The notes under the pieces are model-generated. The model made no database searches and was not told where the DNA came from. It worked only from the letters and a program-made list of their open reading frames with translations. A DNA stretch of 44,254 bases. Source: a virus. The stretch lies in the UHGV virus genome UHGV-1376702. One strand, 5' to 3'. The position numbers were made by a program, and so were the translations under genes. Below, one piece after another: positions 1 to 30,126 of the stretch. Numbering within the stretch: the stretch's first letter is position 1; the number at the start of each line of letters is the position of its first letter.

Positions 1-273
1 ATGGATGGGAAGGACGTAGACACCCAGAAACTCATCGGTGAGTCCGTGATGGGTATGAGTGCCATTGGCGGTGTATCCTTACTACAGGATATCTTCCTGG
101 GGGATTCTCCCCGTCACTCATTGGCATCTATGGGTTACGTCACAGGACTACTTGGGGCTGTGCAGGACCTGGCTACCGGTAATATGGATATCAAGACCTT
201 CACTAAGCAGGTGCCGTTAATCCAGGAATTCGCACCTACGCGAGCTATCATCAATAACTTCGGAGACGATTAA
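1..273 (+). CDS. C-terminal fragment of large internal virion (ejection) protein; 5'-truncated by window start
   Basis: ORF is open from base 1 and is in phase with the ORF that runs off the 3' end (40829..44254 is 3426 nt, a multiple of 3), as expected if the sequence is a circular permutation. Confidence 0.5.
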   Translation: MDGKDVDTQKLIGESVMGMSAIGGVSLLQDIFLGDSPRHSLASMGYVTGLLGAVQDLATGNMDIKTFTKQVPLIQEFAPTRAIINNFGDD

Positions 274-274
274 T

Positions 275-1231
275 ATGGCATACAGCTGGCAAGAACAAAT
301 CAAGCCAGCTGGTACCCAGGATATCCAGTGCGATATTGAATATTTGGACAAGTCCTATATTCATGTATACCTAGACGGTGTGGAAACCACTGGGTACACC
401 TGGACCAGCTCTACTAATATCAGGCTTAATTCGGCCTTAGCGGCAAGCACTACTGTGCTACTAATCCGTAAGACAGAGCGAGAGTATCTGTACATTGAGT
501 TCGCCAGTGGTTCTCCGTTCATTGAGGTAAACGTAGACTCCCAAAACACGCAGTTCCTGCACCTTGCGCAGGAACTAGTGGAGGGCCGGGCTATACCCGG
601 ATTCTATGGCGCTATCAGCATGAACGGGTACCGGATAACCAACTTAGCCAACCCAATCAGTGCCCAAGATGCCGCCACTAAGGCTTATGTAGATGCCGCC
701 GATGCCTTACTAGGACAGCGCATTGACGCAGAGCATTCGGGGTGGGTATCCGCTGTACAGGCCGAAGCCGTTACACGGAAGGCAGCAGATGACGCGCTGA
801 GTGCCCGTACCTCCGCCTTGGAGAACACCTTTATAAGCGGTGTAGAGACGGTAAGCTACCCGTGGAGCACGGTCCTGGCCACTGATACGGACGAAGTAAC
901 TCCAGGCTTAGCCTTCACTAAGGCTGTAGTAGAGGTTAACGGGGTTGGGCAGATTCGTGGCTACAGTTTCGATATTGTAGATAATACCATACTGTTTGCA
1001 GAGACCTTACCTGCGGGCACTATTGTAGCCGCTCGGCTGGGGGTTGATGTAACTGCGGGGGACGGTTTTGCTACGCAAGCATCCCTAGATTACTTAGCCG
1101 ACTCTTTGGGAGATTTGGCGTATCTGGACAAGGCTGCAGCTGTATCCAACGCAACCGGCACCGGGGATGTAGTGGCTAAATTTAACGCACTGCTGGCAGC
1201 GCTACGCACCAGTGGGGTGCTGTCTACATGA
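275..1231 (+). CDS. tail fibre / tailspike adaptor protein (T7 gp17 N-terminal-domain-like)
   Basis: 318 aa; RBS GGAGA upstream; N-terminal region and the segment GRAIPGFYGAISMNGYRITNLANPISAQDAATKAYVD resemble the tail-attachment domain of T7-type fibres; lies between internal virion protein and terminase as in T7-like genomes. Confidence 0.6.
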   Translation: MAYSWQEQIKPAGTQDIQCDIEYLDKSYIHVYLDGVETTGYTWTSSTNIRLNSALAASTTVLLIRKTEREYLYIEFASGSPFIEVNVDSQNTQFLHLAQELVEGRAIPGFYGAISMNGYRITNLANPISAQDAATKAYVDAADALLGQRIDAEHSGWVSAVQAEAVTRKAADDALSARTSALENTFISGVETVSYPWSTVLATDTDEVTPGLAFTKAVVEVNGVGQIRGYSFDIVDNTILFAETLPAGTIVAARLGVDVTAGDGFATQASLDYLADSLGDLAYLDKAAAVSNATGTGDVVAKFNALLAALRTSGVLST

Positions 1232-1243
1232 TAGGAGAAGAGC

Positions 1244-1546
1244 ATGGCAGGGGCAGCTAAACGCAGTCGCCTCTCGGAGCTGCACCGTATGTTCACCGAG
1301 GCCTTGATTGAAGAAATCAAGCAGTCTAAGGAAGATGAGGTGCCGCTCCCCGCAGCAGATAAATCGGTCATTGCTAAGTTCTTGAAGGATAACGACATCA
1401 CCGCGGACGCAGATTCCGAGGAGATGCAGGACCTTCGTGACGAATTCGATGACGAGCTAGCGGCGCGCAGAGAGGCGCGTAAGCAAGAGATTCTAAATAA
1501 AGTTGGTGGTTCAGACTCTGAGGACTTACTAGAAGGAATTGTCTAA
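1244..1546 (+). CDS. terminase small subunit (putative)
   Basis: 100 aa acidic protein with RBS AGGAGAAG; stop overlaps the start of the large terminase gene (TAATGG); position and size typical of T7-like small terminase. Confidence 0.5.
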   Translation: MAGAAKRSRLSELHRMFTEALIEEIKQSKEDEVPLPAADKSVIAKFLKDNDITADADSEEMQDLRDEFDDELAARREARKQEILNKVGGSDSEDLLEGIV

Positions 1547-3402
1547 TGGTATCGGTGAAGACTGCGCGAAGACTGCGCATGCTCAACCAGAAACTTACTG
1601 GTTATAGTGCGAATCCGCGCAGTATTCCCAAAGAGGAGCGCGAGGATATCGCGATGATGATGGCCGCGGCGCTAAGCGACTTCCGGGAATTCGCGTACAT
1701 CGGTATGCGGTTCCTGGGCTTTACGCTCACGGACATGCAGGCCGACATTGCAGAGTACATGCAGAAGGGCCCTAGGAAGCGAATGGTGGCCGCGCAGCGT
1801 GGTGAGGCTAAGTCTACACTAGCTGCGCTGTACGCCGTCTGGAGGCTCATACAGGACCAATCCTGCCGTATCCTGATTGTGTCTGGTGCAGAGAAGCAGG
1901 CGTCCGATGTAGCGAACTTAATCATTCGTATGCTGGAAACCTGGCCGCTGCTGTGCTACTTGAAGGCTGACTCTACTCGTGGGGACCGTACTTCATTCGA
2001 AGGTTATGATGTTCACTGCGACCTGAAACCTCTAGATAAGTCCGCCAGCGTAGCCTGTGTAGGTATCACTGCATCCCTGCAGGGGAAGCGTGCGGACCTG
2101 CTGATTCCGGATGATATCGAGACCACCAAGAATGGTTTAACGCAAACCCAGCGTGAGCAGCTGCTGATGATTTCTAAAGACTTCGCGGCTATCTGTACGC
2201 ACGGGGATACGCTGTACCTGGGTACACCACAGACCAAGGACAGTATCTATAAAACCCTGCCGGGACGTGGCTTCGAGGTCCGCGTGTGGCCCGGGCGCAT
2301 TCCGTCTGTTGAAATGGAAGAGCGATATGGAAGTACACTTGCTCCTTATATCCTGGAGCTTATTGAGCGCGGCTATAAACGCACCGGCTTCGGAGTCGAT
2401 GGGACGCTAGGCGAGAGCACGGACCCCGGGCGCTATGACGAGGATGCACTGATTGAGAAGGAGCTGGACTTTGGTCCGGAAGGCTTCCAGCTGCAGTACA
2501 TGCTCGACACCACCCTGTCCGACCAAATGCGTACGCGTATCAAGCTTTCGGATATGCTGGTTTACTCTGGCAGCCAGGAGTCCTCACCGGAGACGTTCTC
2601 CTACATCGCGGACCGCCGGTACCTGTACCAGCATGAGCATGAGGGGATTATGGGTCAGCAGATGTACTTCCCGGCATTCTACGGGGACATGCACCTGCCG
2701 TACCAGCATAAGGTACTGGTGGTGGACCCGGCTGGTTGTGGTGGGGACGAAGTGTCCTACGCTGCTGGAGGTGCTGCGAACTCGTACATTCACCTATTCT
2801 CCGTAGGCGGATTCCAAGGAGGTATCAGCGAAGAGAACATTGATAAACTGATTGACCTGTGTGTAGAGTTGGACATCCCGGATATGGTGGTGGAGAGCAA
2901 TATGGGGCACGGTACCGTGTCTATGCTTATCCTGAACCGATTACGTGAGCGGCGTCTCGCCGGTATCGGTGTAAGGGACCTGAATAACTCCACGCAGAAA
3001 GAGCGTCGTATCATCGACACAATCAGCCCAGTTACTCGTCGCCATCGCCTGATAGTGCATGAGCGTGCTATTCACGACGATATCAGTACCTGTATGGCAT
3101 ATTCCCGCGATAGGCGTTGGCTGTACTCTGCGTTCGCGCAGTTGTCCGGTATCACGTACGACCGCGGTAGCCTTGCGAAGGATGACCGGGCAGACGCAAT
3201 CGCCATGATGGTGGCTACGCTGAATGGGCATCTGGTGGAAGATGAGAAAGTGGTGGCTGAGCGTGAGTCTGAGAAGATGGCTCGGGCCTTCATTGAGAAC
3301 CCGCTGGATTGGGCACAGAGCAAAGTGTCTAAGGGCCTTCGGGGTGTAGCTGCTCGGCTGCATAACCGAGGCAGAGGTAAACAACATAGAGGAAGAAGAT
3401 AA
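1546..3402 (+). CDS. terminase large subunit
   Basis: 618 aa; N-terminal ATPase-like region (RMVAAQRGEAKST) and C-terminal nuclease-like region (VVDPAGCGGDEVSYAAGG); size and synteny match T7 gp19-type TerL. Confidence 0.85.
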   Translation: MVSVKTARRLRMLNQKLTGYSANPRSIPKEEREDIAMMMAAALSDFREFAYIGMRFLGFTLTDMQADIAEYMQKGPRKRMVAAQRGEAKSTLAALYAVWRLIQDQSCRILIVSGAEKQASDVANLIIRMLETWPLLCYLKADSTRGDRTSFEGYDVHCDLKPLDKSASVACVGITASLQGKRADLLIPDDIETTKNGLTQTQREQLLMISKDFAAICTHGDTLYLGTPQTKDSIYKTLPGRGFEVRVWPGRIPSVEMEERYGSTLAPYILELIERGYKRTGFGVDGTLGESTDPGRYDEDALIEKELDFGPEGFQLQYMLDTTLSDQMRTRIKLSDMLVYSGSQESSPETFSYIADRRYLYQHEHEGIMGQQMYFPAFYGDMHLPYQHKVLVVDPAGCGGDEVSYAAGGAANSYIHLFSVGGFQGGISEENIDKLIDLCVELDIPDMVVESNMGHGTVSMLILNRLRERRLAGIGVRDLNNSTQKERRIIDTISPVTRRHRLIVHERAIHDDISTCMAYSRDRRWLYSAFAQLSGITYDRGSLAKDDRADAIAMMVATLNGHLVEDEKVVAERESEKMARAFIENPLDWAQSKVSKGLRGVAARLHNRGRGKQHRGRR

Positions 3403-3776
3403 TGGCATCAATCATCGCAGCTAAAACTGCGGACGTACAGTACGCCATTGTAGGCACGTGCCAGAACCTGGAGAAGCAGGCGTCGCCGGACTACAACGTA
3501 GGCTTCGTAGGTACGACTGCCTTGACTAAGCTGAACGCGTTCTTCACGTACATGCAGTCCCAGGGCTATACGGCTACTCGTGCCGGTACAGCCTTCAAGG
3601 ATGACGGTACGCTGCAGGCGCGCCTGTTCAGCATGCTGTCACAGCTCTCTAAGACTGGCTACGTCGCCCTTACGGGTACAGGTATGCCGCTCGGTGAGGG
3701 CTCCGGTACAGCGTTTGATGATTCGTTCACTGCACTGCAGAGTGCGTTCGTAGCCGCCACTGACGCGGCAGAATAA
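3402..3776 (+). CDS. hypothetical protein
   Basis: 124-aa ORF, start overlaps terminase stop (ATAATGG); protein-like composition; no recognisable motif. Confidence 0.45.
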   Translation: MASIIAAKTADVQYAIVGTCQNLEKQASPDYNVGFVGTTALTKLNAFFTYMQSQGYTATRAGTAFKDDGTLQARLFSMLSQLSKTGYVALTGTGMPLGEGSGTAFDDSFTALQSAFVAATDAAE

Positions 3777-3787
3777 GGAGAGTACAC

Positions 3788-3970
3788 ATGGCAATTGCAA
3801 AAGCAACCCCAGCGCAACAGCAGGAGCTGCTGCGTCAGCTGAACATTCTCGGTAAGGACCTGTATGCTATCCTTACGCAGCCGCAGAACGTGGCCCAGAC
3901 TGGTGCTGCCTTCGATACCAAGATTGCTGCGCTTGAAGCCGCGGTGGCCGCAGTGAAGGCTGCTAGCTAA
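3788..3970 (+). CDS. hypothetical protein
   Basis: 60-aa ORF with RBS GGAGAG upstream; Ala/Gln-rich, helix-like; no transmembrane segment. Confidence 0.35.
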   Translation: MAIAKATPAQQQELLRQLNILGKDLYAILTQPQNVAQTGAAFDTKIAALEAAVAAVKAAS

Positions 3971-4374
3971 TGCGTAAACTGGTCGCTGGGTTGCTGCTCG
4001 CGGTTACTCTGACTGGTTGCTCGGCGACCTCTGCACTCACCGGATTAGTTGGTTCTAAGCCGGATGTATCTGCTCAGGTTGGTGCCGAGAACACCAAACA
4101 AACCGTTGGCTTGAATAACAAGGTGGACTCCAGCACCACCAACAAAACTGATGTACAGGATTCTAACGTAGGCACTTTGGACACGTCCAGTAAGAAGCAG
4201 GTGCAAACTATTAGCACCGGGACAATCCAGGCAGAACGCCTGCAGGTGGTTAACAATGATAGTTACAGTCTTATCCTCGCCGGATTAGCTGGGGCCAGTA
4301 TTCCTCTGGTCTTCCTAGTGGTCATTCTGGTGATTCGTAAGCTGTTCAGGAAGAAGGGGCAGCAGGATGATTAA
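3970..4374 (+). CDS. unimolecular spanin (u-spanin) candidate
   Basis: 134 aa; N-terminal lipoprotein signal with lipobox LTGC; Ser/Thr/Gln-rich middle; C-terminal TMD (LILAGLAGASIPLVFLVVILVI) then RKLFRKK. This is the architecture of T1 gp11-type u-spanins; no Rz/Rz1 pair is visible. Confidence 0.6.
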   Translation: MRKLVAGLLLAVTLTGCSATSALTGLVGSKPDVSAQVGAENTKQTVGLNNKVDSSTTNKTDVQDSNVGTLDTSSKKQVQTISTGTIQAERLQVVNNDSYSLILAGLAGASIPLVFLVVILVIRKLFRKKGQQDD

Positions 4375-4618
4375 GGTGGGAGACATGGTTGGAGCAGACC
4401 TCGCTACCCGGGCAGGTGCAGCAGTTACCGGCGCTACGGTATCAGGAGGTTGGTTGGCAGAGTTAATGAGCTGGAACTGGAGCACTATCAGCTTCATCAC
4501 TGCGACTGTGTGCGCAGTGCTAACCCTGGCGTGGAATGCGTATTACAAACGACGTACATTCAAGCTCCTAGAGGAGCAGGCACGTAAGGGGACTATTAAA
4601 TATGAGTTTAAGGACTAA
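4367..4618 (+). CDS. pinholin / holin candidate
   Basis: 83 aa (alternative start ATG 4385 with RBS AAGGTGGGAG); weakly hydrophobic Gly/Ala-rich segment (AGAAVTGATVSGGWLA) followed by a strongly hydrophobic TMD (WSTISFITATVCAVLTLAW) and a basic C-terminus; immediately 5' of a SAR endolysin. Confidence 0.5.
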   Translation: MIKVGDMVGADLATRAGAAVTGATVSGGWLAELMSWNWSTISFITATVCAVLTLAWNAYYKRRTFKLLEEQARKGTIKYEFKD

Positions 4619-5210
4619 GGTTATTGCGGCCCTCACGGGGGCCACTATGCTTGGCGGTGCCATTACCGGGGTGGTTCAGCACAACGAGGGGTTGAGCCTT
4701 ACCGCCTATAAGGATAGTGCCGGTGTCCCTACAATCTGCTACGGAGAGACAAAGGGCGTCAAGATGGGTCAGAGAGCCACGCTGAGCGATTGTCAGAAGC
4801 AACTGATAGAATCAGCAGGGGCACATGCAAAGGCTCTTGACGGGCTTCCTGTGCAGCTCTCTGACGTAGCTCTGGTTGGGTCTGTAGACTTCATTTATAA
4901 CGTAGGCGTAGCTGGCTTCAACGGCAGTGCTGTGAAGCGGCATCTCAAAAGCCTGAATTACGCAGCAGCTGGAAAGGCTGTACTGGACTGGCGCTATATT
5001 AGCAAGTACCAGCAGAAATCCCCGGGCATCGGTTGGGTGTACAAGGGCAGCAACCGCTGGACCTTCGACTGCTCTCAGTATATTAACGGGCAGCGCAATA
5101 AAGTGTGCTGGGGCCTATGGGAGCGCAGACAGTGGCAGAGCAAGGCCATTGGGAATCAGTATAAGAATGTAAATGCTGCGGTGGCAGCTCTTACTAAGAC
5201 CGGAGGATAA
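4602..5210 (+). CDS. SAR endolysin (T4-lysozyme-like muramidase, GH24-type)
   Basis: 202 aa; N-terminal signal-arrest-release-like weakly hydrophobic stretch (VIAALTGATMLGGAITGVV); catalytic motif E-x8-D-x5-T (NEGLSLTAYKDSAGVPT) typical of T4L/lambda R-type lysozymes. Confidence 0.8.
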   Translation: MSLRTKVIAALTGATMLGGAITGVVQHNEGLSLTAYKDSAGVPTICYGETKGVKMGQRATLSDCQKQLIESAGAHAKALDGLPVQLSDVALVGSVDFIYNVGVAGFNGSAVKRHLKSLNYAAAGKAVLDWRYISKYQQKSPGIGWVYKGSNRWTFDCSQYINGQRNKVCWGLWERRQWQSKAIGNQYKNVNAAVAALTKTGG

Positions 5211-7166
5211 ATGGCGTTAATTAGATTAGTAGCTCCAGAGCGGGTATTCTCCGACTTGGCGAGCATGGTAGCATATCCAAACTTTCAGGTACAGGACAAG
5301 ATTATCCTGCTGGGCAGCGCCGGTGGGGACTTCACCTTTACTACTGCTGCGTCGGTAGTGGATAACGGAACTGTGTTTGCTGTACCCGGTGGGTATCTGC
5401 TTCGTAAATTCGCGGGCCCGGCATACAGCTCCTGGTTCAGCAATTGGGCGGGCATAGTCACGTTCATGAGTGCACCTAATAGGCACCTGGTTGTGGACAC
5501 AGTCTTGCAGGCCACGAGTGTGCTCAACATCAAAAGCAACTCTACGCTAGAGTTTACTGACACCGGAAGAATCCTGCCGGATGCTGCGGTTGCACGTCAG
5601 GTGCTTAACATTATCGGCTCGGCACCATCGGCGTTCGTGCCGTTAGCAGCGGATGCCGCAGCGGGCAGCAAAGTCATTACGGTGGCTGCCGGGGCTTTGT
5701 CTGCGGTAAAAGGTACGTACTTGTATCTTCGCTCTAACAAGCTGTGCGACGGTGGGCCTAACACGTACGGTGTAAAGATTTCCCAGATTAGGAAAGTGGT
5801 GGGAGTCAGCACCTCCGGTGGCGTCACCAGTATTCGGCTGGATAAAGCGCTGCACTATAACTACTACCTGTCTGATGCCGCGGAAGTAGGCGTCCCTACA
5901 ATGGTAGAGAACGTAACCCTAGTATCTCCGTACATCAACGAGTTCGGCTACGACGACTTGAACCGGTTCTTTACTATCGGTATCTCTGCCAACTTTGCCG
6001 CGGACTTGCACATCCAGGACGGGGTTATTATTGGCAACAAACGCCCCGGGGCTTCTGATATAGAAGGGCGTAGTGCTATCAAGTTCAATAACTGCGTAGA
6101 TAGTACCGTTAAGGGTACGTACTTCTACAACATCGGATGGTATGGGGTAGAGGTGCTCGGCTGCTCAGAGGACACGGAAGTACACGATATCCACGCCATG
6201 GACGTACGCCACGCAATCTCTCTGAACTGGCAGAGCACTGCAGACGGGGACAAGTGGGGAGAGCCTATCGAGTTCTTAGGCGTTAACTGCGAAGCCTACA
6301 ACACAACCCAAGCTGGGTTTGATACTCATGACATTGGTAAGCGTGTGAAGTTCGTTCGATGCGTTTCGTACGACAGTGCTGACGATGGGTTCCAAGCGCG
6401 CACTAACGGGGTAGAGTACTTGAACTGTCGAGTTTACCGTGCAGCTATGGACGGGTTCGCCTCCAACACCGGTGTAGCCTTCCCTATCTATAGGGAGTGC
6501 CTAGCTTATGACAACGTACGCTCTGGCTTTAACTGCTCGTACGGCGGTGGCTACGTTTATGACTGCGAGGCTCACGGTAGCCAGAATGGTGTGCGAATCA
6601 ACGGGGGCCGTGTTAAGGGTGGTCGGTACACCCGCAACTCCAGCTCTCACATCTTCGTTACTAAGGACGTAGCTGAGACAGCGCAGACACCCCTGGAGAT
6701 TGATGGCGTGAGCATGCGCTACGACGGTACCGGGAGAGCTGTGTACTTCCACGGGACTATGGGCATTGACCCTACCCTGGTATCTATGTCCAATAACGAC
6801 ATGACCGGTCACGGCTTGTTCTGGGCATTGCTGAGCGGCTACACCGTTCAACCTACGCCTCCGCGCATGTCCATGAACTTACTGGATGACACAGGTATCC
6901 GTGGAGTGGCAACTCTGGTGGCTGGTGAGGCTACAGTCAACGCCCGTGTACGCGGAAACTTTGGCAGCGTAGCTAACTCCTTCAAGTGGGTGTCTGAGGT
7001 TAAGTTGACGCGGTTGACCTTTCCCTCTAGTGCTGGGGCCTTGACGGTTACTGGCGTAGCTCAGAACCAGGATGTGCCTACACCTAATCCGGACCTAAAC
7101 AGCTTCGTGATTAGGAGCAGTAACGCAGCGGACGTATCCCAGGTAGCCTGGGAGGTGTATCTCTAA
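5211..7166 (+). CDS. tailspike / probable polysaccharide depolymerase (beta-helix)
   Basis: 651 aa; start directly follows the endolysin stop; Gly/Asn/Val/Thr-rich sequence with repetitive short beta-strand pattern (e.g. NCVDSTVKGTYFYNIGWYGVEV) typical of right-handed beta-helix tailspikes; last structural-type gene before the non-coding terminus. Confidence 0.6.
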   Translation: MALIRLVAPERVFSDLASMVAYPNFQVQDKIILLGSAGGDFTFTTAASVVDNGTVFAVPGGYLLRKFAGPAYSSWFSNWAGIVTFMSAPNRHLVVDTVLQATSVLNIKSNSTLEFTDTGRILPDAAVARQVLNIIGSAPSAFVPLAADAAAGSKVITVAAGALSAVKGTYLYLRSNKLCDGGPNTYGVKISQIRKVVGVSTSGGVTSIRLDKALHYNYYLSDAAEVGVPTMVENVTLVSPYINEFGYDDLNRFFTIGISANFAADLHIQDGVIIGNKRPGASDIEGRSAIKFNNCVDSTVKGTYFYNIGWYGVEVLGCSEDTEVHDIHAMDVRHAISLNWQSTADGDKWGEPIEFLGVNCEAYNTTQAGFDTHDIGKRVKFVRCVSYDSADDGFQARTNGVEYLNCRVYRAAMDGFASNTGVAFPIYRECLAYDNVRSGFNCSYGGGYVYDCEAHGSQNGVRINGGRVKGGRYTRNSSSHIFVTKDVAETAQTPLEIDGVSMRYDGTGRAVYFHGTMGIDPTLVSMSNNDMTGHGLFWALLSGYTVQPTPPRMSMNLLDDTGIRGVATLVAGEATVNARVRGNFGSVANSFKWVSEVKLTRLTFPSSAGALTVTGVAQNQDVPTPNPDLNSFVIRSSNAADVSQVAWEVYL

Positions 7167-7261
7167 GTAGATCCCTGGGGTATCTCTACGGTATCCCGGG
7201 GCACTGCTGGGGTGCACGTCTATACCTGGACATGAAATTTATTAGACTTTAAAATGAGGAT

Positions 7262-8260: not shown

Positions 8261-8527
8261 GGTTTTAGGGCACTATATACACTACTTAATACTAGTCCTT
8301 ACTAGTCCCTACTAGGCACTCACTAGTATGGCCCTGTGCCTACGTAGTAGGCTGCCATAACTACATAGTCACCGCATCACTACGTTCCTTCACTTACGTT
8401 ACGTCACTACGTTCTGCTTTATGTAGTATTAGATAGTATTGGCTAGACGTGGCTAGTATTGGCTACAGCCAGTGTCAGCACAGTGCTATCCCTAGTGGCT
8501 ATCCCTATAATATATAAGGAGTTATAC

Positions 8528-9082
8528 ATGTTACCATCTAGTCGGGCTACGGCTAAAGCCACTGGTAGTACATACTACTACACAGGGAAGCACTGTAAGT
8601 ACCAGCACACGGCAAAGCGCCTCACCAGTTCAGGGGAGTGCTCCGAGTGCTTTAAGATTAGGAGTACCAGCCCAGCTACTAAGGAGCGTATGCGGGAGTA
8701 CCATAAGGTTTATCAGGTACGTAAGGCAGAGGCCTTGAGAGAGTACCGTAAGACACGCCGACCTAAGCACATTATGACAGAGGAGCAATTACAGCGTAAG
8801 GTTCGCCACAATGCGCGATACCGTGCTGCGCGTACTCAATCCGTACCCTCATGGTATGGCGAGTGGGATGAGTTTGTTATGTTGGAGGCTATCGCTTTAG
8901 CAGCCGAGAGGGCGGAGTGTACTGGCATAGCGTGGCATATTGACCATATGCTACCGCTAAAGGCTAAAGAGGTGTGCGGCTTACACTGTGCGGGGAACAT
9001 TCAGGTGATACCCGCAACGCTTAATACACATAAGTGTAACAGGCTGCTATTCACGGAGCCGTTGGAGTGGCTAAAGGCATAA
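8528..9082 (+). CDS. HNH endonuclease with N-terminal zinc ribbon
   Basis: Start refined to ATG 8528 (RBS AAGGAG, TATAAT just upstream); Cys-x-x-Cys pairs near the N-terminus; C-terminal HNH motif AWHIDHMLPLKAKEVCGLHCAGNIQVIPATLNTHKCN. Confidence 0.7.
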   Translation: MLPSSRATAKATGSTYYYTGKHCKYQHTAKRLTSSGECSECFKIRSTSPATKERMREYHKVYQVRKAEALREYRKTRRPKHIMTEEQLQRKVRHNARYRAARTQSVPSWYGEWDEFVMLEAIALAAERAECTGIAWHIDHMLPLKAKEVCGLHCAGNIQVIPATLNTHKCNRLLFTEPLEWLKA

Positions 9083-9088
9083 ACTTGA

Positions 9089-9127
9089 GGTAATACAGTA
9101 CTATAAATGCTGTATTACCTTTTTTTA
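9089..9127 (+). terminator. rho-independent terminator
   Basis: Perfect 10-bp stem GGTAATACAG / CTGTATTACC with an 11-nt loop followed by T7, directly after the HNH gene stop. Confidence 0.6.
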
Positions 9128-9263: not shown

Positions 9264-9292
9264 TTGACAATAGCAGTAAACGCTTTTATAGT
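9264..9292 (+). promoter_or_regulatory. sigma70-type promoter (TTGACA-N17-TATAGT)
   Basis: Perfect -35 hexamer, 17-bp spacer, 5/6 match at -10; predicted start near 9299-9300. A weaker candidate (TTGCTT-N18-TATATT) lies at about 9138-9167. Confidence 0.6.
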
Positions 9293-11144: not shown

Positions 11145-11489
11145 ATGATGACGGTAGATGAAGCTGCTGTTTTCATGTGGAAGCTGCTGGAAACGCAGGG
11201 CAAGTGCGGGTGCCCTTGGGGAACATTCAAAGAGGTTCCTAATGAACTCAAGCAAATCATACCGGTCGAGCGCAGACTCCTCCGTGTTCGTAGGCAGGAC
11301 TCTACGGTGGTGCTCACAACCTATCGCGAGTATACAGAATCTGCCGCGCGGCAGTTGCAAGAGCACATTCAGTTCGATGTGGTTGCAGCACTGCTACGGT
11401 ACGGGTATCGTGGAGCATATACAAGATTTAGGGCGGCAGTACGGGCATATTATAAGCAAGCGCAGATCGCTGCATGGTACGCACGCTGA
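11145..11489 (+). CDS. hypothetical early protein
   Basis: 114 aa; RBS GGAGG before ATGATG; protein-like composition, unlike the overlapping frame. Confidence 0.5.
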   Translation: MMTVDEAAVFMWKLLETQGKCGCPWGTFKEVPNELKQIIPVERRLLRVRRQDSTVVLTTYREYTESAARQLQEHIQFDVVAALLRYGYRGAYTRFRAAVRAYYKQAQIAAWYAR

Positions 11490-11538
11490 CTTAGTGGTTG
11501 GCGATGAACTCAAAGAACCTATTCAGGAGCAAACTAAA

Positions 11539-13215
11539 ATGCAAGAGACTAACACAGCACCTATCGAATGGAAAATCGTATTACCGGAAGGTGCAAACGC
11601 ACTGCCGATTAAAGAATCAATGTATTCCAGCGGTGATTACTGGACCCCGTTCCAGGACTTGCAAATGCAAGGGGAGGACCATCCCCACACTGAGGGTCCG
11701 CTGCAGGTGCTTATGGGTCTCCGCACTGTCAGTGCGCACACTCCAGGCTTAGAGGTGACTATAGGCGGGGCACTGCACCCAGAGTATCGCGAATCAACGA
11801 TGACGCTCGGCCCGTTGCAAAAGGTGGACCTGTACCGGTCCGGAACTTTCTGCGAACTCTTTGAACCGGTGCGAATCACCATAGACAGCAAGTTCTGGGA
11901 ACGCCGCCGCGACTTCTATGAGGGCGAGGATGTAGTGGTTGAGCGCGTAGTTGCTTGCGTCGAAGAATTCACAGGTTACAAGGTGCACAAGCAGGCCGTG
12001 CAGTTATTTGAGCGCATCATGCTTGCACCAGAAGAGCAGCAGCGCCGCTTATACACTGGCTACGATTACGGCCGCCACACCCGCGATGGCAACTTAGCTG
12101 CGCTGCTCATGAAGTTGCACGGATTCATAGTATCTAGATTCGCCGTGCCATTGGGCTTTGGTTTCCGCAACGGTGAGCCTATCGTGATGCTGGGGCAGCC
12201 GCGGATGCACAAGGACTTCGCCGCAGTTACCGAGTACCGTTGTGTGGAGATGCGCGTAGGTAAGTGGCTCGCTAACTACTACGGCAATGGCGTAGACTTC
12301 CGCGATGCTATCGAAGACCTCAAGGCTATGAACGTAGAGCCTACAACGTACCTGTGCAAGACCGAGCAGGAATGGTACGACTCCTACGAGAATGGCCCGA
12401 GTAGCTGCATGAGTGGATACTCATTTGAGCATAGCCCGGTGCGGGTGTATGCTACTACCAGCCACGGGCTGCCGGACAACGGGCTGCGCCTGTTCATCCA
12501 GTACACCGGGGAACTGTTCGGGGATGACTTCGAAGTGCAGGCACGGGCAATCGTTAACACAGAAACTAACGAGTACGTCCGCGCTTACGGCAACGCTGCG
12601 GATGCAATCCTGCGGGGGCATGGGTACACCAAAAACATTGAATGTCTCGAAGGGGTAATGCTGGCGCGAATACCGCACCCAACATACAACGGCGCAGTGC
12701 TGATGCCATACCTAGATAGCAGCCAGTGCGGCGTAGATGAGTATGGGGATGATGCCTTTGTAATCCGTGATGCTTATGAGTACGAGGCACAAGACTCAGA
12801 AGGATACATCTACGTAGGCACTGAGTCTGCTGGGTGCTGCTGCTGTGAATGTCGCTACTCTGTAGATGACATGCAGGAGACCGCAGATGGTGATATGGTC
12901 TGCGACGGCTGCGTAGAAGAAGGGGATTTTGTGTACGTAGTTGGGCGTGATGGTCTGCATAATCGCTGGAGCTGCACCTGGTCTGATTACCACGACGCCT
13001 ATGTATACGACGAGGACATAGAGCGCTGCGAAGTAGAGGGTGTAGTGCACGACCAAGAGGAACTGGTGTTTGCACAGGACCGGCAAGTGCTTATTGAACA
13101 CGCAGAAGAACACCCAGTGCACGGGTTAATTCTCACTGAGCATGCAGCTGATTGCTTGGGAGAGAAGTACCTGGGAAACGATGAAGATGAAGAAGAAGCA
13201 GAGGAGGCAGCTTAA
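11539..13215 (+). CDS. large early protein of unknown function (Cys cluster, acidic C-terminal tail)
   Basis: Start refined to ATG 11539 (RBS AGGAGC); the 127-codon 5' extension in the track has junk-like composition. 558 aa; CCCCEC and CDGC clusters near the C-terminus; ends NDEDEEEAEEAA. Confidence 0.55.
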   Translation: MQETNTAPIEWKIVLPEGANALPIKESMYSSGDYWTPFQDLQMQGEDHPHTEGPLQVLMGLRTVSAHTPGLEVTIGGALHPEYRESTMTLGPLQKVDLYRSGTFCELFEPVRITIDSKFWERRRDFYEGEDVVVERVVACVEEFTGYKVHKQAVQLFERIMLAPEEQQRRLYTGYDYGRHTRDGNLAALLMKLHGFIVSRFAVPLGFGFRNGEPIVMLGQPRMHKDFAAVTEYRCVEMRVGKWLANYYGNGVDFRDAIEDLKAMNVEPTTYLCKTEQEWYDSYENGPSSCMSGYSFEHSPVRVYATTSHGLPDNGLRLFIQYTGELFGDDFEVQARAIVNTETNEYVRAYGNAADAILRGHGYTKNIECLEGVMLARIPHPTYNGAVLMPYLDSSQCGVDEYGDDAFVIRDAYEYEAQDSEGYIYVGTESAGCCCCECRYSVDDMQETADGDMVCDGCVEEGDFVYVVGRDGLHNRWSCTWSDYHDAYVYDEDIERCEVEGVVHDQEELVFAQDRQVLIEHAEEHPVHGLILTEHAADCLGEKYLGNDEDEEEAEEAA

Positions 13216-14261
13216 TGTTCTTGAATCCGCATGGGATTGATATGCAGCTGCTCTTGCAGATACTGCGAACGCACCGGCCTAGCTGGGCAAGCACTAAGTG
13301 GTTCGATCCGCTGCTTATGCAGGCGCTGGGTAGTGGTATGCACTACGTAAAGGATAAGCACGGGAACTACTTCGTGCTGGTGGGGGACTCAGAGCAAAGT
13401 GATGTAGCGTTTACGTCTCATCTCGATACGGTGGCCCGCCCAACCAGCGCTGCACCGGACGTCGGCTGCACTAACAAGGGCGTGCTGTTCGTAAAGAATC
13501 CGCAACAAGCTGACTGCTTGGGGGCGGACTGCGGTGCCGGTGTCTACCTGATGCTGGAGATGCTGCGGCGGGGTGTGCACGGACGCTACTGCTTCTTCGT
13601 GGATGAGGAGGTTGGCTGCGAAGGCAGCGCTGCATCGGTCAAGGATGACACTGGATTTTGGACTGGTGTCAAGGCGATGATTAGCTTTGACCGCCGCGGA
13701 GATGGTATCATTACGCACCAGCGGTACATGCGCTGCTGCTCTGATACCTTTGCCAAGACTCTGGCAGAGCGCCTAGGACGCACGGAGCAGCACTTACAAA
13801 AGGGTGTGTATACTGACTCAGCCGAGTTCGTCGGCATCATCCCTGAGTGCACCAACGTCGGTGTAGGGTACATGCACGAGCACACTCCGGATGAGGTGCT
13901 GGACCTGAACATCCTGGGGAAAGTGCTTGAGCGGGTACTGCAAGATGGTACGTTCTCGCACCTTCCGATTGAGCGGGACCCGAAGGTAGTAGAGCCGGAC
14001 CAATGGCTCTCAGCATCGACGCTCAGTTTACGGCAGCCATGGGATATGCCGCCAGACGAGGACCCGCAATTGCTGGCAGCGTTCCGTGTAGTGTCGCAGC
14101 TTTCTAAACAACAACTGGTTAGCTGGGTGCAGGAGAATCCAGAGAAGGCGGCGGAGTACATAATGGTGTTCTCCGATTACGGCTTTAAAGAAGAACTGAT
14201 TGAATTAGGCACCCGAGTCGTAGAAGACTGGGGTGGATACGATAATATTGTGGAGGGTTAA
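13215..14261 (+). CDS. di-zinc metallopeptidase-like protein (clan MH, M20/M28/M42-like)
   Basis: 348 aa; ordered motifs SHLDTV (His-x-Asp), GADCGAG (bridging Asp), DEEVGCEGS (Glu-Glu), FDRRGDG, GYMHEH match the metal-ligand pattern of M20/M28 aminopeptidase/deacylase folds; recognised by eye only. Confidence 0.45.
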   Translation: MFLNPHGIDMQLLLQILRTHRPSWASTKWFDPLLMQALGSGMHYVKDKHGNYFVLVGDSEQSDVAFTSHLDTVARPTSAAPDVGCTNKGVLFVKNPQQADCLGADCGAGVYLMLEMLRRGVHGRYCFFVDEEVGCEGSAASVKDDTGFWTGVKAMISFDRRGDGIITHQRYMRCCSDTFAKTLAERLGRTEQHLQKGVYTDSAEFVGIIPECTNVGVGYMHEHTPDEVLDLNILGKVLERVLQDGTFSHLPIERDPKVVEPDQWLSASTLSLRQPWDMPPDEDPQLLAAFRVVSQLSKQQLVSWVQENPEKAAEYIMVFSDYGFKEELIELGTRVVEDWGGYDNIVEG

Positions 14262-14263
14262 TT

Positions 14264-14722
14264 ATGTCTAATTTTAAAGTTGGTGATAAAGTTGTGCGTA
14301 CAGTTGAGAGCAAAACGTTCTGGCTCATTCAAGGCGTTAAGAATTATTACATTGTAACGGATGTTGGCGCAGGTGGTTACTGGTTACAGTTGGATGGGGT
14401 GCGAGATAAGGAGGACCCCCGTCCGTGGTACGCGCCAAACTTCGAACTGTACCAAGAGCCCGAGGACGAGGAGCTGCCGCCGGTTCCAGCCAGTGTAACC
14501 TACGTGAACTCCAAGCGCGATTCTGGAAATGACCAGCGCCTAGTCCTTGATAAGGACAACGGTGAAGGGGAAGGATTAATGTACATCGGAGTAATCCCTC
14601 GCAAGGGAAGTACTCGAGCACAGATGGAGATTGGGATTAACATCGACCCTGATTCAGCCCTGCAGTTGGCGCACGACCTGCGCCGCATGGCTATGGATAT
14701 CAAACGTAAGGAGAAAGCATAA
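14264..14722 (+). CDS. hypothetical protein
   Basis: 152-aa ORF; A+T-rich 5' half relative to the surrounding genome; no motif. Confidence 0.45.
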   Translation: MSNFKVGDKVVRTVESKTFWLIQGVKNYYIVTDVGAGGYWLQLDGVRDKEDPRPWYAPNFELYQEPEDEELPPVPASVTYVNSKRDSGNDQRLVLDKDNGEGEGLMYIGVIPRKGSTRAQMEIGINIDPDSALQLAHDLRRMAMDIKRKEKA

Positions 14723-14910
14723 TGAAAGTAAAAGCTCTAGAAAATAGCCCAGAGAACTTTCTGTTCACGGACAGAACCTATACCTTAATTAACGTAAAGG
14801 ATGGTCGCGCCACTATAAAAGATGATTTAACCAATTTAACTACGGTGGTTAAAGTGGAGCGAATTTTACTCACAGAGGGTAACGCTACCGATGGACCAGC
14901 CCTGGCTTAG
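14722..14910 (+). CDS. hypothetical small protein
   Basis: 62-aa ORF; start overlaps previous stop (TAATG); A+T-rich. Confidence 0.35.
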   Translation: MKVKALENSPENFLFTDRTYTLINVKDGRATIKDDLTNLTTVVKVERILLTEGNATDGPALA

Positions 14911-15676
14911 AGCGTGCAAGCGCCTGGCCGTGGGGCAGAGGGCACGCTTTCGGTGCTGCGGCAGGGACGCCGCCGGGGTGCTCTACAATAACCCGGATGC
15001 CTGGGAATACTATTGCCACCGCTGCAAACAGGTGGGCAAGGAGCACAAGCAGTACCAGCGCATACAGTTACAGGAAGAGCCGAGGGTGCAGCCCTCTGCA
15101 CCTGCAGATGCAATTTGCATTAGCCAAGCGCCTGCGGAAACGCAGAGTTTTATTTACGGATTCCTGACCACAAAGGGAATCATGCCTGAAATGGTGGAGG
15201 ATGCAGAATGGAGCAAAGAGAAACAGCGGATAATCTTCCGTGTCGGAAGCGCTGCTCTAGGCCGTGCAGTGCATGCTCGGCAGCAACCGAAGTGGGTAAT
15301 GTACGGCCAGCCAATAGCTTTCGCTGTCGCGGCACCTGCCGTAGCACCGGCTGTAGCTGCGGCCGCACCTCTAAAGGTCGTGCTCACCGAGGACTTACTC
15401 TCAGCCCGGAAGATACAGCACGCAGTTACGAGCTACAGTGCGTTGAACGTGCAGGCTATAGCTATGCTGGGTACACGCTTGCCCACGCCGCTGAGGGCTT
15501 GGCTGATACAGAATCGCCCGGAAGTGATTCTGATGCTGGACAATGACCCAGCAGGGCACGCTGGAGTAGCGGCGGCGCGCCGCGCACTGCGTCCGTTCAT
15601 GCAGTGTCGTGAGCATTACTTCGCTGCGGACCCGAAGGATGCAGAAATCAAAGAGATTCTGGAGGCTTTACAATGA
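14891..15676 (+). CDS. DNA primase (zinc ribbon + TOPRIM)
   Basis: 261 aa; N-terminal CCG...CHRC zinc-ribbon; TOPRIM-like acidic motifs (VVLTEDLL and ILMLDNDPAGHAG). Confidence 0.75.
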   Translation: MDQPWLRACKRLAVGQRARFRCCGRDAAGVLYNNPDAWEYYCHRCKQVGKEHKQYQRIQLQEEPRVQPSAPADAICISQAPAETQSFIYGFLTTKGIMPEMVEDAEWSKEKQRIIFRVGSAALGRAVHARQQPKWVMYGQPIAFAVAAPAVAPAVAAAAPLKVVLTEDLLSARKIQHAVTSYSALNVQAIAMLGTRLPTPLRAWLIQNRPEVILMLDNDPAGHAGVAAARRALRPFMQCREHYFAADPKDAEIKEILEALQ

Positions 15677-15867: not shown

Positions 15868-16305
15868 TTGGACCTAATAGGTGATTGCATAGACCACGGG
15901 AGAAAGGGCAACCACAATGGGTATGGAGTAACCTCGTGGCCTGGAAACAGGAAACGCACAGCACTGAAACACAGGGTTGTGATGGCTAATAAATTAGGCG
16001 TCCCATTGGAGGCAATAAGCGGAAAGGTTGTCAGGCATAAGTGTGACAATCCCCGCTGTATAAACCCGGACCACTTAGAACTTGGCACTCAACTTGACAA
16101 CGTAGAAGATGCCAGAAAGAGGGGCCGGGTTTCTAGTGGCTCAAGACACTACAAGGCAACTGTTTCAGCGGACTTGATACAGTGGGTACGTGATGTGTAC
16201 GTAAAGCGCAGCAAAGAGTACAACCAGTACGCCTTAGCCAAGAGACTGGGAGTATCCCGCTCGTGTATAAACAACTGGCTCAACAACTACACTAGGGGTG
16301 GGTGA
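15868..16305 (+). CDS. HNH homing endonuclease
   Basis: 145 aa (TTG start after RBS AGGAGG); motifs CIDHG, HR, VRHKCDNPRCINPDHLELGT...N shared with four paralogues in this window. Confidence 0.8.
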   Translation: MDLIGDCIDHGRKGNHNGYGVTSWPGNRKRTALKHRVVMANKLGVPLEAISGKVVRHKCDNPRCINPDHLELGTQLDNVEDARKRGRVSSGSRHYKATVSADLIQWVRDVYVKRSKEYNQYALAKRLGVSRSCINNWLNNYTRGG

Positions 16306-20989: not shown

Positions 20990-21424
20990 ATGTCGATGTG
21001 TATTGACCACGGGTATAACAAATGCCTTAACAAGAACGGATACCGCCGGGCATGGTATAAGCCGACCAGGCGATTGGAGCTGCTGCATCGGGTGGTGTAT
21101 GCTGAGCATAACGGGCTGGATATAAGGGCGCTGGCTGGCCTGTCTGTTAGACATACCTGCGATAACCCCAGGTGCATTAACCCTAAGCACTTAGTATTGG
21201 GAACGCATATGGATAATATGCGGGACCGTGCAGAGCGCGGAAGGAACCCAGATGTGCGTGGGGATAGGAACCCAAAAGCGCAGTTAACTTGGGATGCTGT
21301 GCAGGATATCAGGGATAACTATATCCCATACAAGAAAGGTATGCGGCAACACTTTGCTAATAAGTACGGTGTAGGTGTACATGTAATTAGTGACGTAATA
21401 AGTAACAGGAGCTGGAATGCCTAA
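20990..21424 (+). CDS. HNH homing endonuclease
   Basis: 144 aa; RBS AAGAGGA; motifs CIDHG, HR, VRHTCDNPRCINPKHLVLGT...N. Confidence 0.8.
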   Translation: MSMCIDHGYNKCLNKNGYRRAWYKPTRRLELLHRVVYAEHNGLDIRALAGLSVRHTCDNPRCINPKHLVLGTHMDNMRDRAERGRNPDVRGDRNPKAQLTWDAVQDIRDNYIPYKKGMRQHFANKYGVGVHVISDVISNRSWNA

Positions 21425-22629: not shown

Positions 22630-23418
22630 ATGACGATGAATGCACTGGACACCCTGAACTCCCTGGTAGCGGCTGCTATTGAAACGCAGGATGTTGATAT
22701 GACTGAAACCGCACAGGGCGGTGCGTATGAGGACGCGCTGCTGCCGAAGGGTGAATACTACGGCTACTTCACCGAGTACGTAGAAATCGGTAAGCGCCTG
22801 CCGACTAAGGGTGGCAAGCCGACCGGTAAGCCCGCAGTAGCTAACGTACGCATCGGCATTGTAGTGTTCGGTCCTAACGGCGAAGTGAAGCGTATCCGCC
22901 CGTTCCCGATGGCTATCAGTAACTTTGAGCGCGCAGGCTTCAAGAAGTTCTTCGACAAGCTCAACTACGACAATAGCATTAAGCATGCAGCACAGCGTCT
23001 GGGCCAGGCCTTCACCTTCCCGATTGATGAGCACACCAGCGCCGCGGGCAAGAAGTCCAACATCGTGGACCTGTCCGGTATCCGCCCGATTCCGAAATTC
23101 GACCCGAACACTGGCGAGCCTATCAAGATGCCTGCCATGGATGCCTCTGAGATTAAGCTGTTCCTGTGGAACAACCCAACCAAAGAGACCTGGGATAGCC
23201 TGCACATCGAAGGCACCTTCGACGATGGTAAGAGCAAGAACTGGATTCAGGAGGATATGTACAAGGCTGTAGACTTCCCTGGCAGTGCTCTGGATATTCT
23301 GCTGAACGCTGGCTCGGTTCCTAGTCCGGCAGCTATGCAGGCACCCGCAGCCCCGGCTGCACCAGTGGCCCCTGCAGCCCCTGTGGCGCCAGCAGCACCC
23401 GCCGCACCTCAAGCCTAA
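22630..23418 (+). CDS. hypothetical protein with Pro/Ala-repeat C-terminal tail
   Basis: 262 aa; RBS GAGGAAG; C-terminus APAAPAAPVAPAAPVAPAAPAAPQA. Confidence 0.5.
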   Translation: MTMNALDTLNSLVAAAIETQDVDMTETAQGGAYEDALLPKGEYYGYFTEYVEIGKRLPTKGGKPTGKPAVANVRIGIVVFGPNGEVKRIRPFPMAISNFERAGFKKFFDKLNYDNSIKHAAQRLGQAFTFPIDEHTSAAGKKSNIVDLSGIRPIPKFDPNTGEPIKMPAMDASEIKLFLWNNPTKETWDSLHIEGTFDDGKSKNWIQEDMYKAVDFPGSALDILLNAGSVPSPAAMQAPAAPAAPVAPAAPVAPAAPAAPQA

Positions 23419-29685: not shown

Positions 29686-30126
29686 ATGAAGTTAAAACAC
29701 ACTAGTAAAACTTCCGACTACACTCTCAAGGTTCTGTATAAATCTGACGACGTTACAGACGCAGTGAAGCAACTGCACGAACTGGGCCATGGCATTAGTC
29801 GGGGCCTGGCTCCAGAGCAGCACTACTGGAGGGTGTTGGGAAGTATACTGGGTAAACAGTATATACTAGGAGTCTATGACTCCAAAGGCGACTTAGTCGG
29901 TGCTGTCAGCTACTACCCAGAGGCTGTAGAGGACTGTCATTACGTAGAGCCTGTGCTGTATACAGACTTCTTCGTATTGAAACCGGACAACGGCGCGGCA
30001 GTGTCTGTGATTATGCAGGGCCTGCACGCAATAGCCAAGTGCATGCGCGCTGGGCGTATCGCCATTAGCCGAAGCACGTCCAGTAACACGTACAAAACAA
30101 CTTATCATTTAGTGAGGTCAGAATGA
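29686..30126 (+). CDS. hypothetical protein
   Basis: 146-aa ORF, A+T-richer than neighbours; no secure motif. Confidence 0.5.
   Translation: MKLKHTSKTSDYTLKVLYKSDDVTDAVKQLHELGHGISRGLAPEQHYWRVLGSILGKQYILGVYDSKGDLVGAVSYYPEAVEDCHYVEPVLYTDFFVLKPDNGAAVSVIMQGLHAIAKCMRAGRIAISRSTSSNTYKTTYHLVRSE

Follow-up and report, generated by a model that had tools for sequence, protein, structure and literature searches.

What do two abutting genes in the early region of a Klebsiella phage genome do, and why do they stand side by side? The genes in question occupy positions 11539–14261 of the viral genome UHGV-1376702, a stretch of 44,254 nucleotides that is referred to here as the window. The first (11539–13215, plus strand) encodes a large acidic protein of 558 amino acids (aa) and the second (13215–14261, plus strand) encodes a peptidase-like protein of 348 aa. 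They are homologues of KP34 gp10 (hypothetical) and gp11 (putative peptidase), respectively, and are 87–99% identical across the genus Drulisvirus; we use the KP34 names for both. An earlier note, made from the sequence alone, had taken the two genes for a module that is unusual for the early gene set of T7-like phages. Judged by its recurrence in distant genomes, the pair is one copy of an old, mobile two-gene module in which adjacency is near-obligate and order-tolerant.

The 3.8 kb around the gene pair matches 248 phage records at 87–91% DNA identity, 232 of which are Klebsiella phages of Drulisvirus, and the window is a Drulisvirus genome (KP34-like, Autographiviridae). Instead of being unusual, the pair is thus KP34 gp10/gp11, a set of genus core genes found in more than 230 Klebsiella phage records. 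In a 2015 comparison of KP34-group genomes, gp10 and gp11 are core genes 3 and 4 of 'Kp34likevirus', among 29 core genes, and gp11 is annotated as 'putative peptidase' (PMC4411677). In the PhiM1-like Pectobacterium phages, the IPR007484 peptidase is the sole annotated early gene (PMC6115819). The two articles name just the peptidase and, in the parts consulted, assign no function or features to the gene beside it. The peptidase assignment of gp11 is therefore already in the databases and the literature. In the literature searched, we found no functional study of the gp10/gp11 pair and no description of the partner family, of its Ser-Cys-Met core and Ala-Ala tail, or of how widely and how tightly the two genes are paired.

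As candidates for therapy against Klebsiella, KP34-like phages are among those most often used, and gp10 and gp11 make up about 6% of the genome. The unit recurs in marine and environmental phage contigs, in Vibrio, Pectobacterium, Pseudomonas and Bradyrhizobium phages, in jumbo-size contigs, in plasmids and in chromosomal islands. Since it is so widely conserved and would be expressed at DNA entry, its function likely matters for infection or establishment.

The two genes recur as a unit in distant phages and plasmids

Adjacency was assessed first in a viral set anchored on the peptidase, which comprises 51 distant loci whose best matched segment is 32–45% identical to the window peptidase. 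A relative of gp10, hereafter the partner, lies next to or near the peptidase in 43 of the 45 assessable loci. It is immediately upstream on the same strand in 37, immediately downstream in five and nearby in one; it was undetected in two, and the remaining six lack upstream DNA. The five downstream cases, which include jumbo-size viral contigs of 150–464 kb, represent a reversed gene order. The partner on the jumbo contigs has about 330 aa, lacks the zinc ribbon described below and ends in an acidic tail with an aromatic last residue. It keeps the segments NSCMR, RARAL, RIYS, NGY and PYLD, and an hhalign comparison of these short partners with the gp10 core gave a probability of 82% (E = 1e-5). 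The peptidase beside these partners is of a longer subtype, and the C-terminal regions of the longer and the short subtype align poorly. When synteny was anchored on the partner instead (seven loci), the peptidase followed downstream in every case, immediately in six and separated by one small gene in the other.

In bacteria, sampled at one genome per species, the peptidase has only 88 relatives, which are concentrated in Sphingomonadaceae and Rhizobiales, and the partner is adjacent in 54 of 73 assessable loci. A recurrent bacterial order is DUF2958, a 700-aa ParB_N protein, partner, peptidase, a DUF7146/Toprim protein and a YspA/SLOG protein. The pair is also present on plasmids, where the peptidase homologues carry the NCBI name 'M28 family peptidase'. 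It is found on the Sphingopyxis plasmid pMC4, typed as conjugative, and on a Limnohabitans plasmid, where it lies upstream of the genes for an orphan N6-methylase (at a distance of about 1.4 kb) and a relaxase (about 4.5 kb). On the Methylobacterium indicum plasmid pVL1_2 (61.9–71.1 kb), a partner, a partner-peptidase pair and a second partner-peptidase pair are arranged in tandem. We considered a placement of the pair in plasmid leading regions and softened this proposal, as pMC4 has no transfer genes within 20 kb of the pair and the matches on Bradyrhizobium megaplasmids are lone fragments.

The pair therefore recurs in genomes that otherwise share little: integrase-bearing marine phage contigs, jumbo-size contigs, a 121-kb Bradyrhizobium phage, plasmids and chromosomal islands. 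This adjacency across very distant phages and plasmids bears out the proposal that the two genes form a module, and does so more strongly than the stop/start overlap on which the earlier note had based it. Pairwise identities of the two proteins correlate with r = 0.93 over 31 loci and with r = 0.88 among the divergent pairs, the partner being the faster-evolving protein (mean identity 24%, vs 41% for the peptidase). In the phage contigs, replication genes go with the pair in some lineages; beyond these, no third gene is found with it consistently.

Several loci showed further neighbours. The tandem on pVL1_2 is located upstream, by a few kb, of a ProQ/FinO gene and of one that encodes a truncated member of the glutamate--tRNA ligase family. 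In one metagenome contig (L085) the pair stands beside a gene with a weak match to the TROVE (Ro60-like) domain, and in another (L084) it stands upstream of a DUF2201 gene. LR756504.1, a 636-kb uncultured phage, has eight separate peptidase-like places; the one that was inspected lies in a 708-codon stop-to-stop open reading frame with no partner nearby.

gp11 is probably an active clan MH hydrolase

The earlier note had read the ligand pattern of clan MH zinc peptidases in the second gene and had suggested profile searches and structure prediction as checks. All of the motifs are present: H69-x-D71 (SHLDTV), D105 (LGADCG), E131-E132 (DEEVG), D159 and H223 are invariant among 49 homologues of 32–96% identity, as is the TD motif at residues 200–201, which is typical of clan MH. 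The seven ligand and catalytic residues fall within a catalytic domain of approximately residues 40–245 (13332–13949, plus strand), and PepT 3gb0 can be aligned over the H-x-D, LGAD and EE segments as well as the final His. In the Pfam search, gp11 exceeded the gathering cut-off of M28 (PF04389) by a small margin (24.1 vs 21.3 bits, E = 3.5e-5, residues 55–164) and stayed below those of M20 (PF01546; 16.0 vs 24.6 bits) and M42 (PF05343; 10.8 vs 23.2 bits), while the large protein gave no match. gp11 also matches phrog_4191, 'peptidase', with an E-value of 4e-158, and has more than 2,000 relatives.

The AlphaFold2 model of gp11 has a predicted local distance difference test score (pLDDT) of 85 and a predicted TM-score of 0.80. 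A Foldseek search with this model returned 228 PDB matches at E ≤ 0.001, and all 50 of those listed are clan MH-type enzymes, with PepT-like tripeptidases, M42 TET aminopeptidases and lid-less DapE catalytic domains at the top (E = 1e-11 to 1e-8). The predicted structure has the clan MH fold, and the match to this fold, together with ligand conservation, suggests that the ligands cluster in space around two metal ions. As only 63 residues separate D159 from H223, the fourth and fifth ligands, gp11 has neither the lid/dimerisation domain of M20 nor the PDZ-like insert of M42; the model shows no inserted beta domain, and the best structural overlap is with DapE catalytic-domain constructs that lack the lid. 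Beyond residue 250, the model shows a disordered linker followed by a five-helix extension, which is also evident as a C-terminal alignment block (residues 284–347; 14064–14258, plus strand). This extension is specific to the short peptidase subtype (approximately 300–360 aa) and is replaced in the longer one (approximately 365–440 aa), so that the longer homologues cover just 59–75% or so of the gp11 query.

Given the invariance of the ligands and the catalytic Glu, the M28 score above the cut-off and the fold match, gp11 is a single-domain clan MH (M28-like) hydrolase of the di-zinc type with a complete catalytic set and is probably active. It shares its alpha/beta fold and the ligand order H-x-D / D / E-E / D / H with M28 enzymes of the Aeromonas/Streptomyces type, with the M20 enzymes PepT, DapE, ArgE and LysK, and with M42 TET. 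Unlike the solved members of the clan, to which it is only about 12–20% identical, gp11 combines the absence of the M20 lid and the M42 PDZ-like domain with a C-terminal helical extension of its own. It also differs from the characterised clan MH families in that it appears cytoplasmic, no signal peptide being visible in the sequence of either gp10 or gp11, and in that it is nearly always encoded beside one specific partner gene. To our knowledge, a dedicated partner gene is not a feature of those families.

gp10 belongs to an undescribed family with an invariant core

The family of gp10, a large, cytoplasmic and strongly acidic protein, is undescribed. When 1.84 billion representative proteins were searched exhaustively, 287 relatives were found at E ≤ 0.001, most of which align at residues ~230–475 only. 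Sequence searches of gp10 against Pfam, NCBIfam, PADLOC and the PDB gave nothing beyond zinc-finger noise, and a Pfam scan of 68 family members showed no recurrent domain at E ≤ 10, in agreement with the earlier impression that the protein resembles nothing recognised. Matches to its predicted structure in BFVD were confined to uncharacterised proteins of Klebsiella, Shigella (Buco), Vibrio, Pseudomonas, Pectobacterium and Caulobacter phages.

The conserved part of gp10 is a core of residues 268–495 (12340–13023, plus strand). In an alignment of the same 68 relatives (A2), in which the mean column identity is 10%, S289, C290, R336, Y350 and D393 are invariant, and Y283, G286, M291, Y304, L358, G362, P390, Y391, G422, C433, C436, C455 and C458 are nearly so. 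Among these residues is the Ser289-Cys290-Met291 motif (12403–12411, plus strand; consensus GPxSCM), with Ser and Cys in 68/68 sequences and Met in 67/68, after which we refer to the 'SCM' family. The earlier note had caught the cysteine cluster and the acidic tail of this protein and had missed both the Ser-Cys-Met core and the Ala-Ala C-terminus.

In the AlphaFold2 model, the core (pLDDT ~77–93) consists of an alpha/beta domain, whose fold is weakly GNAT-like, and of a zinc ribbon and beta-hairpins that come after it. The model was built from 29 sequences, and a profile search with distant members yielded only 15 proteins; owing to this shallow structural alignment, the N-terminal 267 and C-terminal 63 residues are poorly modelled. 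Residues 268–430 can be called weakly 'GNAT-like in fold', a description that does not establish membership. Among the 68 family members, no Pfam GNAT profile matched at E ≤ 0.001, and at E ≤ 10 one member matched Acetyltransf_6 (E = 0.053); hhalign gave a probability of 0.2% between the gp10 family and the phage's own GNAT gene (29686–30126). The acyl-coenzyme A motif Q/R-x-x-G-x-G/A is not conserved: R348 is found in 55/68 and G351 in 61/68 sequences, and the third position is variable. gp10 thus differs from the GNAT transferases (Gcn5-related, FemX, L/F-transferase and ATE1) in lacking both profile similarity and a conserved pyrophosphate-binding motif for coenzyme A, and in adding a zinc ribbon and an acidic tail. 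Its invariant Ser-Cys-Met, Arg, Tyr and Asp residues fit no GNAT subfamily known to us.

Asp and Glu outnumber Lys and Arg by 43 to 12 in the core and by 20 to 3 in the last 63 residues of gp10, and the family has a median net acidic fraction of 7%. One GenBank record labels the protein a 'putative DNA mimic protein'. We considered gp10 as the missing single-stranded DNA-binding protein (SSB) of the phage, since no SSB is annotated and gp10 has an acidic tail, a zinc finger and numerous invariant Tyr residues. This was rejected as the leading idea, as the fold is not OB-like, the obligate peptidase partner would be left unexplained, and a 262-aa protein (phrog_862) is another candidate for this role.

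The zinc ribbon and the acidic Ala-Ala tail are family traits

The earlier note had pointed to a 'striking' CCCCEC...CDGC cluster in the large protein. The cluster is real, and by its conservation pattern it is a plain C4 zinc ribbon, C433-x2-C436-x18-C455-x2-C458 (12835–12912, plus strand), with incidental extra cysteines. gp10 has cysteines at 433–436, 438, 455 and 458. The four presumptive ligands are present in 66/68 (C433), 65/68 (C436), 63/68 (C455) and 65/68 (C458) family members, while C434, C435 and C438 vary even among close relatives within Drulisvirus. Short strands flank both CxxC knuckles in the model. The x18 spacing fits a GATA-like finger, to which phmmer aligned the ribbon only weakly (E = 0.062 over 36 residues). 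The region adjoining DNA-binding GATA fingers is basic, whereas the surroundings of the gp10 ribbon are acidic, and we do not assign it to GATA.

The poly-acidic tail that the earlier note had seen is likewise borne out: gp10 ends in NDEDEEEAEEAA (13174–13212, plus strand), with ...EEAA at the very C-terminus. Across the family, the acidic tail is a shared trait and has a specific ending. Among 133 representative distant relatives of at least 380 aa, 43 (32%) end in AA, against an expected 0.6%, and 68 (51%) end in A, against an expected 7.5%; Glu or Asp predominates at positions −3 to −8, Glu being the commonest residue at each. The partners at peptidase-anchored loci behave in the same way, 20 of 37 viral and 41 of 52 bacterial ones ending in Ala. 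C-motif 1 of ClpX, the ssrA degron, is a C-terminus of the form 'LAA-COOH'. The free nonpolar-Ala-Ala C-terminus of gp10 is ssrA-like by this measure, and recognition by ClpX is purely putative. Alongside this resemblance to the ssrA/ClpX motif, the tail may just as well serve the neighbouring exopeptidase as a substrate or as a docking peptide.

Ribbon and tail together also recall LysW. A zinc ribbon followed by an acidic tail, encoded beside a clan MH hydrolase, is formally like the LysW carrier with LysK, an analogy and not homology. gp11 matched the NCBIfam [LysW]-lysine hydrolase profile below threshold (E = 0.23). Unlike LysW, gp10 is about 10 times larger, has no EDWGE motif and gives no Pfam LysW match. 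The idea of a LysW-like carrier was dropped, as ATP-grasp ligase or other pathway genes were not found near the pair.

Gene boundaries, the junction and the early position

The full open reading frame of the large gene spans 11158–13215, and the start at ATG 11539 gives the 558-aa protein, which matches phrog_6980 with E = 0. The earlier note had discarded the 5' extension as junk, and the extension (11158–11538) is indeed not coding. This 381-nucleotide (nt) segment overlaps an upstream gene for a 114-aa protein (11145–11489, plus strand), which matches phrog_6167 over its full length (E = 2.4e-54). In 24 Drulisvirus genomes, the most variable codon position there is position 3 of the 114-aa frame (0.19 vs 0.08 and 0.05), equivalent to position 2 of the extension frame, and the pattern changes to the frame of the large gene downstream of 11539. 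ATG 11539 and a ribosome-binding site of the form (A/G)GGAG are kept in 24/24 of these genomes (in the window AGGAG, 11525–11529, plus strand, 9 nt before the ATG, as read from the sequence), and a stop codon interrupts the extension in 2/24. Many public entries annotate gp10 52–98 codons too long (forms of 610–656 aa), and the PHROG 6980 profile wrongly takes in ~98 spurious N-terminal residues.

The overlapping stop and start of the two genes take the form TAATG (13213–13217, plus strand), with the A at 13215 shared. A strong ribosome-binding site for the peptidase gene, GAGGAGG (13201–13207, plus strand), lies within the 3' end of the large gene, 7 nt before the start.

A strong terminator with a 14-bp stem and a T-run (9087–9121) is followed by a near-consensus sigma-70 promoter, TTGACA-17-TATAGT (9264–9292). 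These elements are probably the physical left end and the early promoter of the genome, which would make the window a circular permutation; relative to GenBank entries it is indeed circularly permuted. The pair begins approximately 2.2 kb downstream of the promoter and sits just upstream of the genes for the primase, an HNH endonuclease, the helicase and the DNA polymerase.

Possible roles of the module

We tentatively favour, at a little under an even chance, a co-expressed two-subunit system that is made at DNA entry and in which the hydrolase acts on a host target and is directed or regulated by the partner. This interpretation draws on the probably active hydrolase, the enzyme-like invariant residues of the partner, the near-obligate adjacency, the TAATG junction, the early position and the islands of mobile elements in which the pair occurs. 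In this scheme, transcription of the early operon shortly after DNA entry would cover both genes, their translation would be coupled, and we infer that the proteins would act as one complex. gp10 would recognise the substrate or regulate the reaction, its acidic tail possibly serving for docking, and gp11 would provide hydrolysis as a di-zinc exopeptidase or amidohydrolase. Candidate targets are a peptide of the host, a protein terminus and a metabolite with an amide linkage, and the purpose would be host take-over or the establishment of incoming DNA and not virion assembly or lysis.

Several observations weigh against this interpretation. The peptidase stands without a detectable partner in 19 of the 73 bacterial loci, and gp56 of Thermus phage P23-45, a distant peptidase homologue, likewise has no detectable partner. 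The mirror-tree correlation (r = 0.93) is also expected from simple co-inheritance with the genome. No partner-peptidase fusion occurs among 399 sampled proteins, and it is only gene order that points to a physical interaction between gp10 and gp11. Furthermore, the version with a host protein as the target is limited by the inability of clan MH exopeptidases to degrade folded proteins.

A more specific proposal, which we regard as unlikely, is an 'entry module' common to lytic phages, jumbo phages and conjugative elements, in which a Cys-dependent GNAT-like enzyme with an ssrA-like tail and its dedicated di-zinc exopeptidase would edit protein termini or hijack Clp-type proteolysis, securing the incoming DNA. 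Examples would be the creation or removal of degrons and the destruction of an immune or housekeeping factor. If the module does manipulate host proteolysis or immunity in such a way, it would represent a new class of enzymes for phage-host biology, in host take-over or counter-defence. The invariant Cys and the Ala-Ala terminus of gp10, whose family has no Pfam model, are simple and decisive targets for mutagenesis.

The tail itself may be the centre of the system, a possibility to which we assign a rather low probability. It would be an ssrA-like degron for ClpXP, or a substrate or docking peptide of gp11 acting as a carboxypeptidase, and its trimming would time, activate or stabilise gp10. 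The enrichment of Ala and Ala-Ala after acidic residues, found equally at the peptidase-anchored loci, is in line with this explanation, and so is the switch of the jumbo-contig tails to an acidic and aromatic ending beside the longer peptidase subtype with its divergent C-terminal region. Clan MH includes carboxypeptidases that remove C-terminal Glu, e.g., CPG2 and GCPII. However, the rule is statistical, many members ending in EE, DV, EL or IY, and a basic 'carboxylate clamp' is not evident in the C-terminal block of the peptidase. The explanation also leaves the invariant Ser-Cys-Met/Arg/Tyr/Asp core unaccounted for, and its link to ClpXP is one of motif likeness.

Alternatively, the pair may act on a small molecule, which appears distinctly improbable. 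gp10 would be a GNAT-like acyl- or aminoacyl-transferase and gp11 an ArgE/DapE-like deacylase for an amino-acid-derived metabolite, and together they would tune host metabolism or detoxify; ArgA with ArgE and MccE with MccF are formal analogues. The invariant polar residues of gp10 suggest catalysis, and gp11 resembles the lid-less DapE catalytic domain (TM-score 0.62 on the target) and PepT-like M20 enzymes. Against this, the gp10 family has neither a GNAT profile match nor a conserved Q/RxxGxG/A motif, and its zinc ribbon and conserved tail would have no explanation. Coupled acylation and deacylation would moreover be futile unless other steps intervene, and a third conserved gene is absent. 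Should the pair prove to be a metabolic helper, the analysis would still correct the widespread misannotation of the gp10 start site and define the partner family.

It is very unlikely that gp10 is a counter-defence decoy that, like Ocr and ArdA, mimics nucleic acid or serves as bait for an immune or DNA-binding protein of the host, with the peptidase as an accessory. ArdC, an anti-restriction protein with a metalloprotease domain, would be a precedent. The acidity of gp10, its label in GenBank, its location in the early region and, on plasmids, next to genes for a relaxase and an orphan methylase, and the paralogous tandem pairs on one plasmid are all compatible with this proposal, and plasmid leading regions are enriched in anti-defence genes (PMC11541004). 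The plasmid anti-defence survey names no peptidase, however, and, as pMC4 has no transfer genes close to the pair, a leading-region position is not established. In PDB, PADLOC and Pfam no homology of gp10 to known mimics such as Ocr and ArdA was found, acidity being all that they have in common. Unlike fast-turnover anti-defence genes, gp10 is a core gene whose putative active site is deeply conserved from Klebsiella to marine hosts.

That the two proteins have independent functions and stand together merely through inherited gene order, which is very stable in T7-like genomes and with which both the mirror-tree correlation, explicable by plain co-inheritance, and the solitary peptidase homologues are compatible, is highly improbable, because the adjacency persists between genomes with little else in common, through reversal of the order and tandem duplication as pairs.

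Other genes in the window

The slot directly 3' of the peptidase gene is occupied in the window by a 152-aa gene (14264–14722), which matches only positions 206–356 of the 455-position phrog_4317. As phage phiKpS2 has three small genes in its place, this slot beside the conserved pair is variable. Three HNH or endonuclease-VII-like genes (8459–9082, 15868–16305 and 20990–21424) are probably mobile homing endonucleases. Several relatives have an HNH endonuclease gene near the peptidase gene that is not found there in the window, and the HNH gene of phage Pone is located elsewhere. The region of approximately 1–7200 contains apparent late genes (terminase, lysis genes and tail spike), as judged by open reading frame lengths and synteny with Pone.

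The 262-aa protein matching phrog_862 is encoded at 22630–23418 and has a Pro/Ala repeat tail, PAAPAAPVAPAAPVAPAAPAAPQA. Since no SSB is annotated in this phage group, it is one candidate for that function. The primase (14891–15676) has an internal Ala/Pro/Val linker that is similar to the tail of this protein. The GNAT gene compared with the gp10 family above (29686–30126) is a small gene directly after that of the phage RNA polymerase, and the annotation of phage Pone gives it as a GNAT acetyltransferase (HHpred, 98%).

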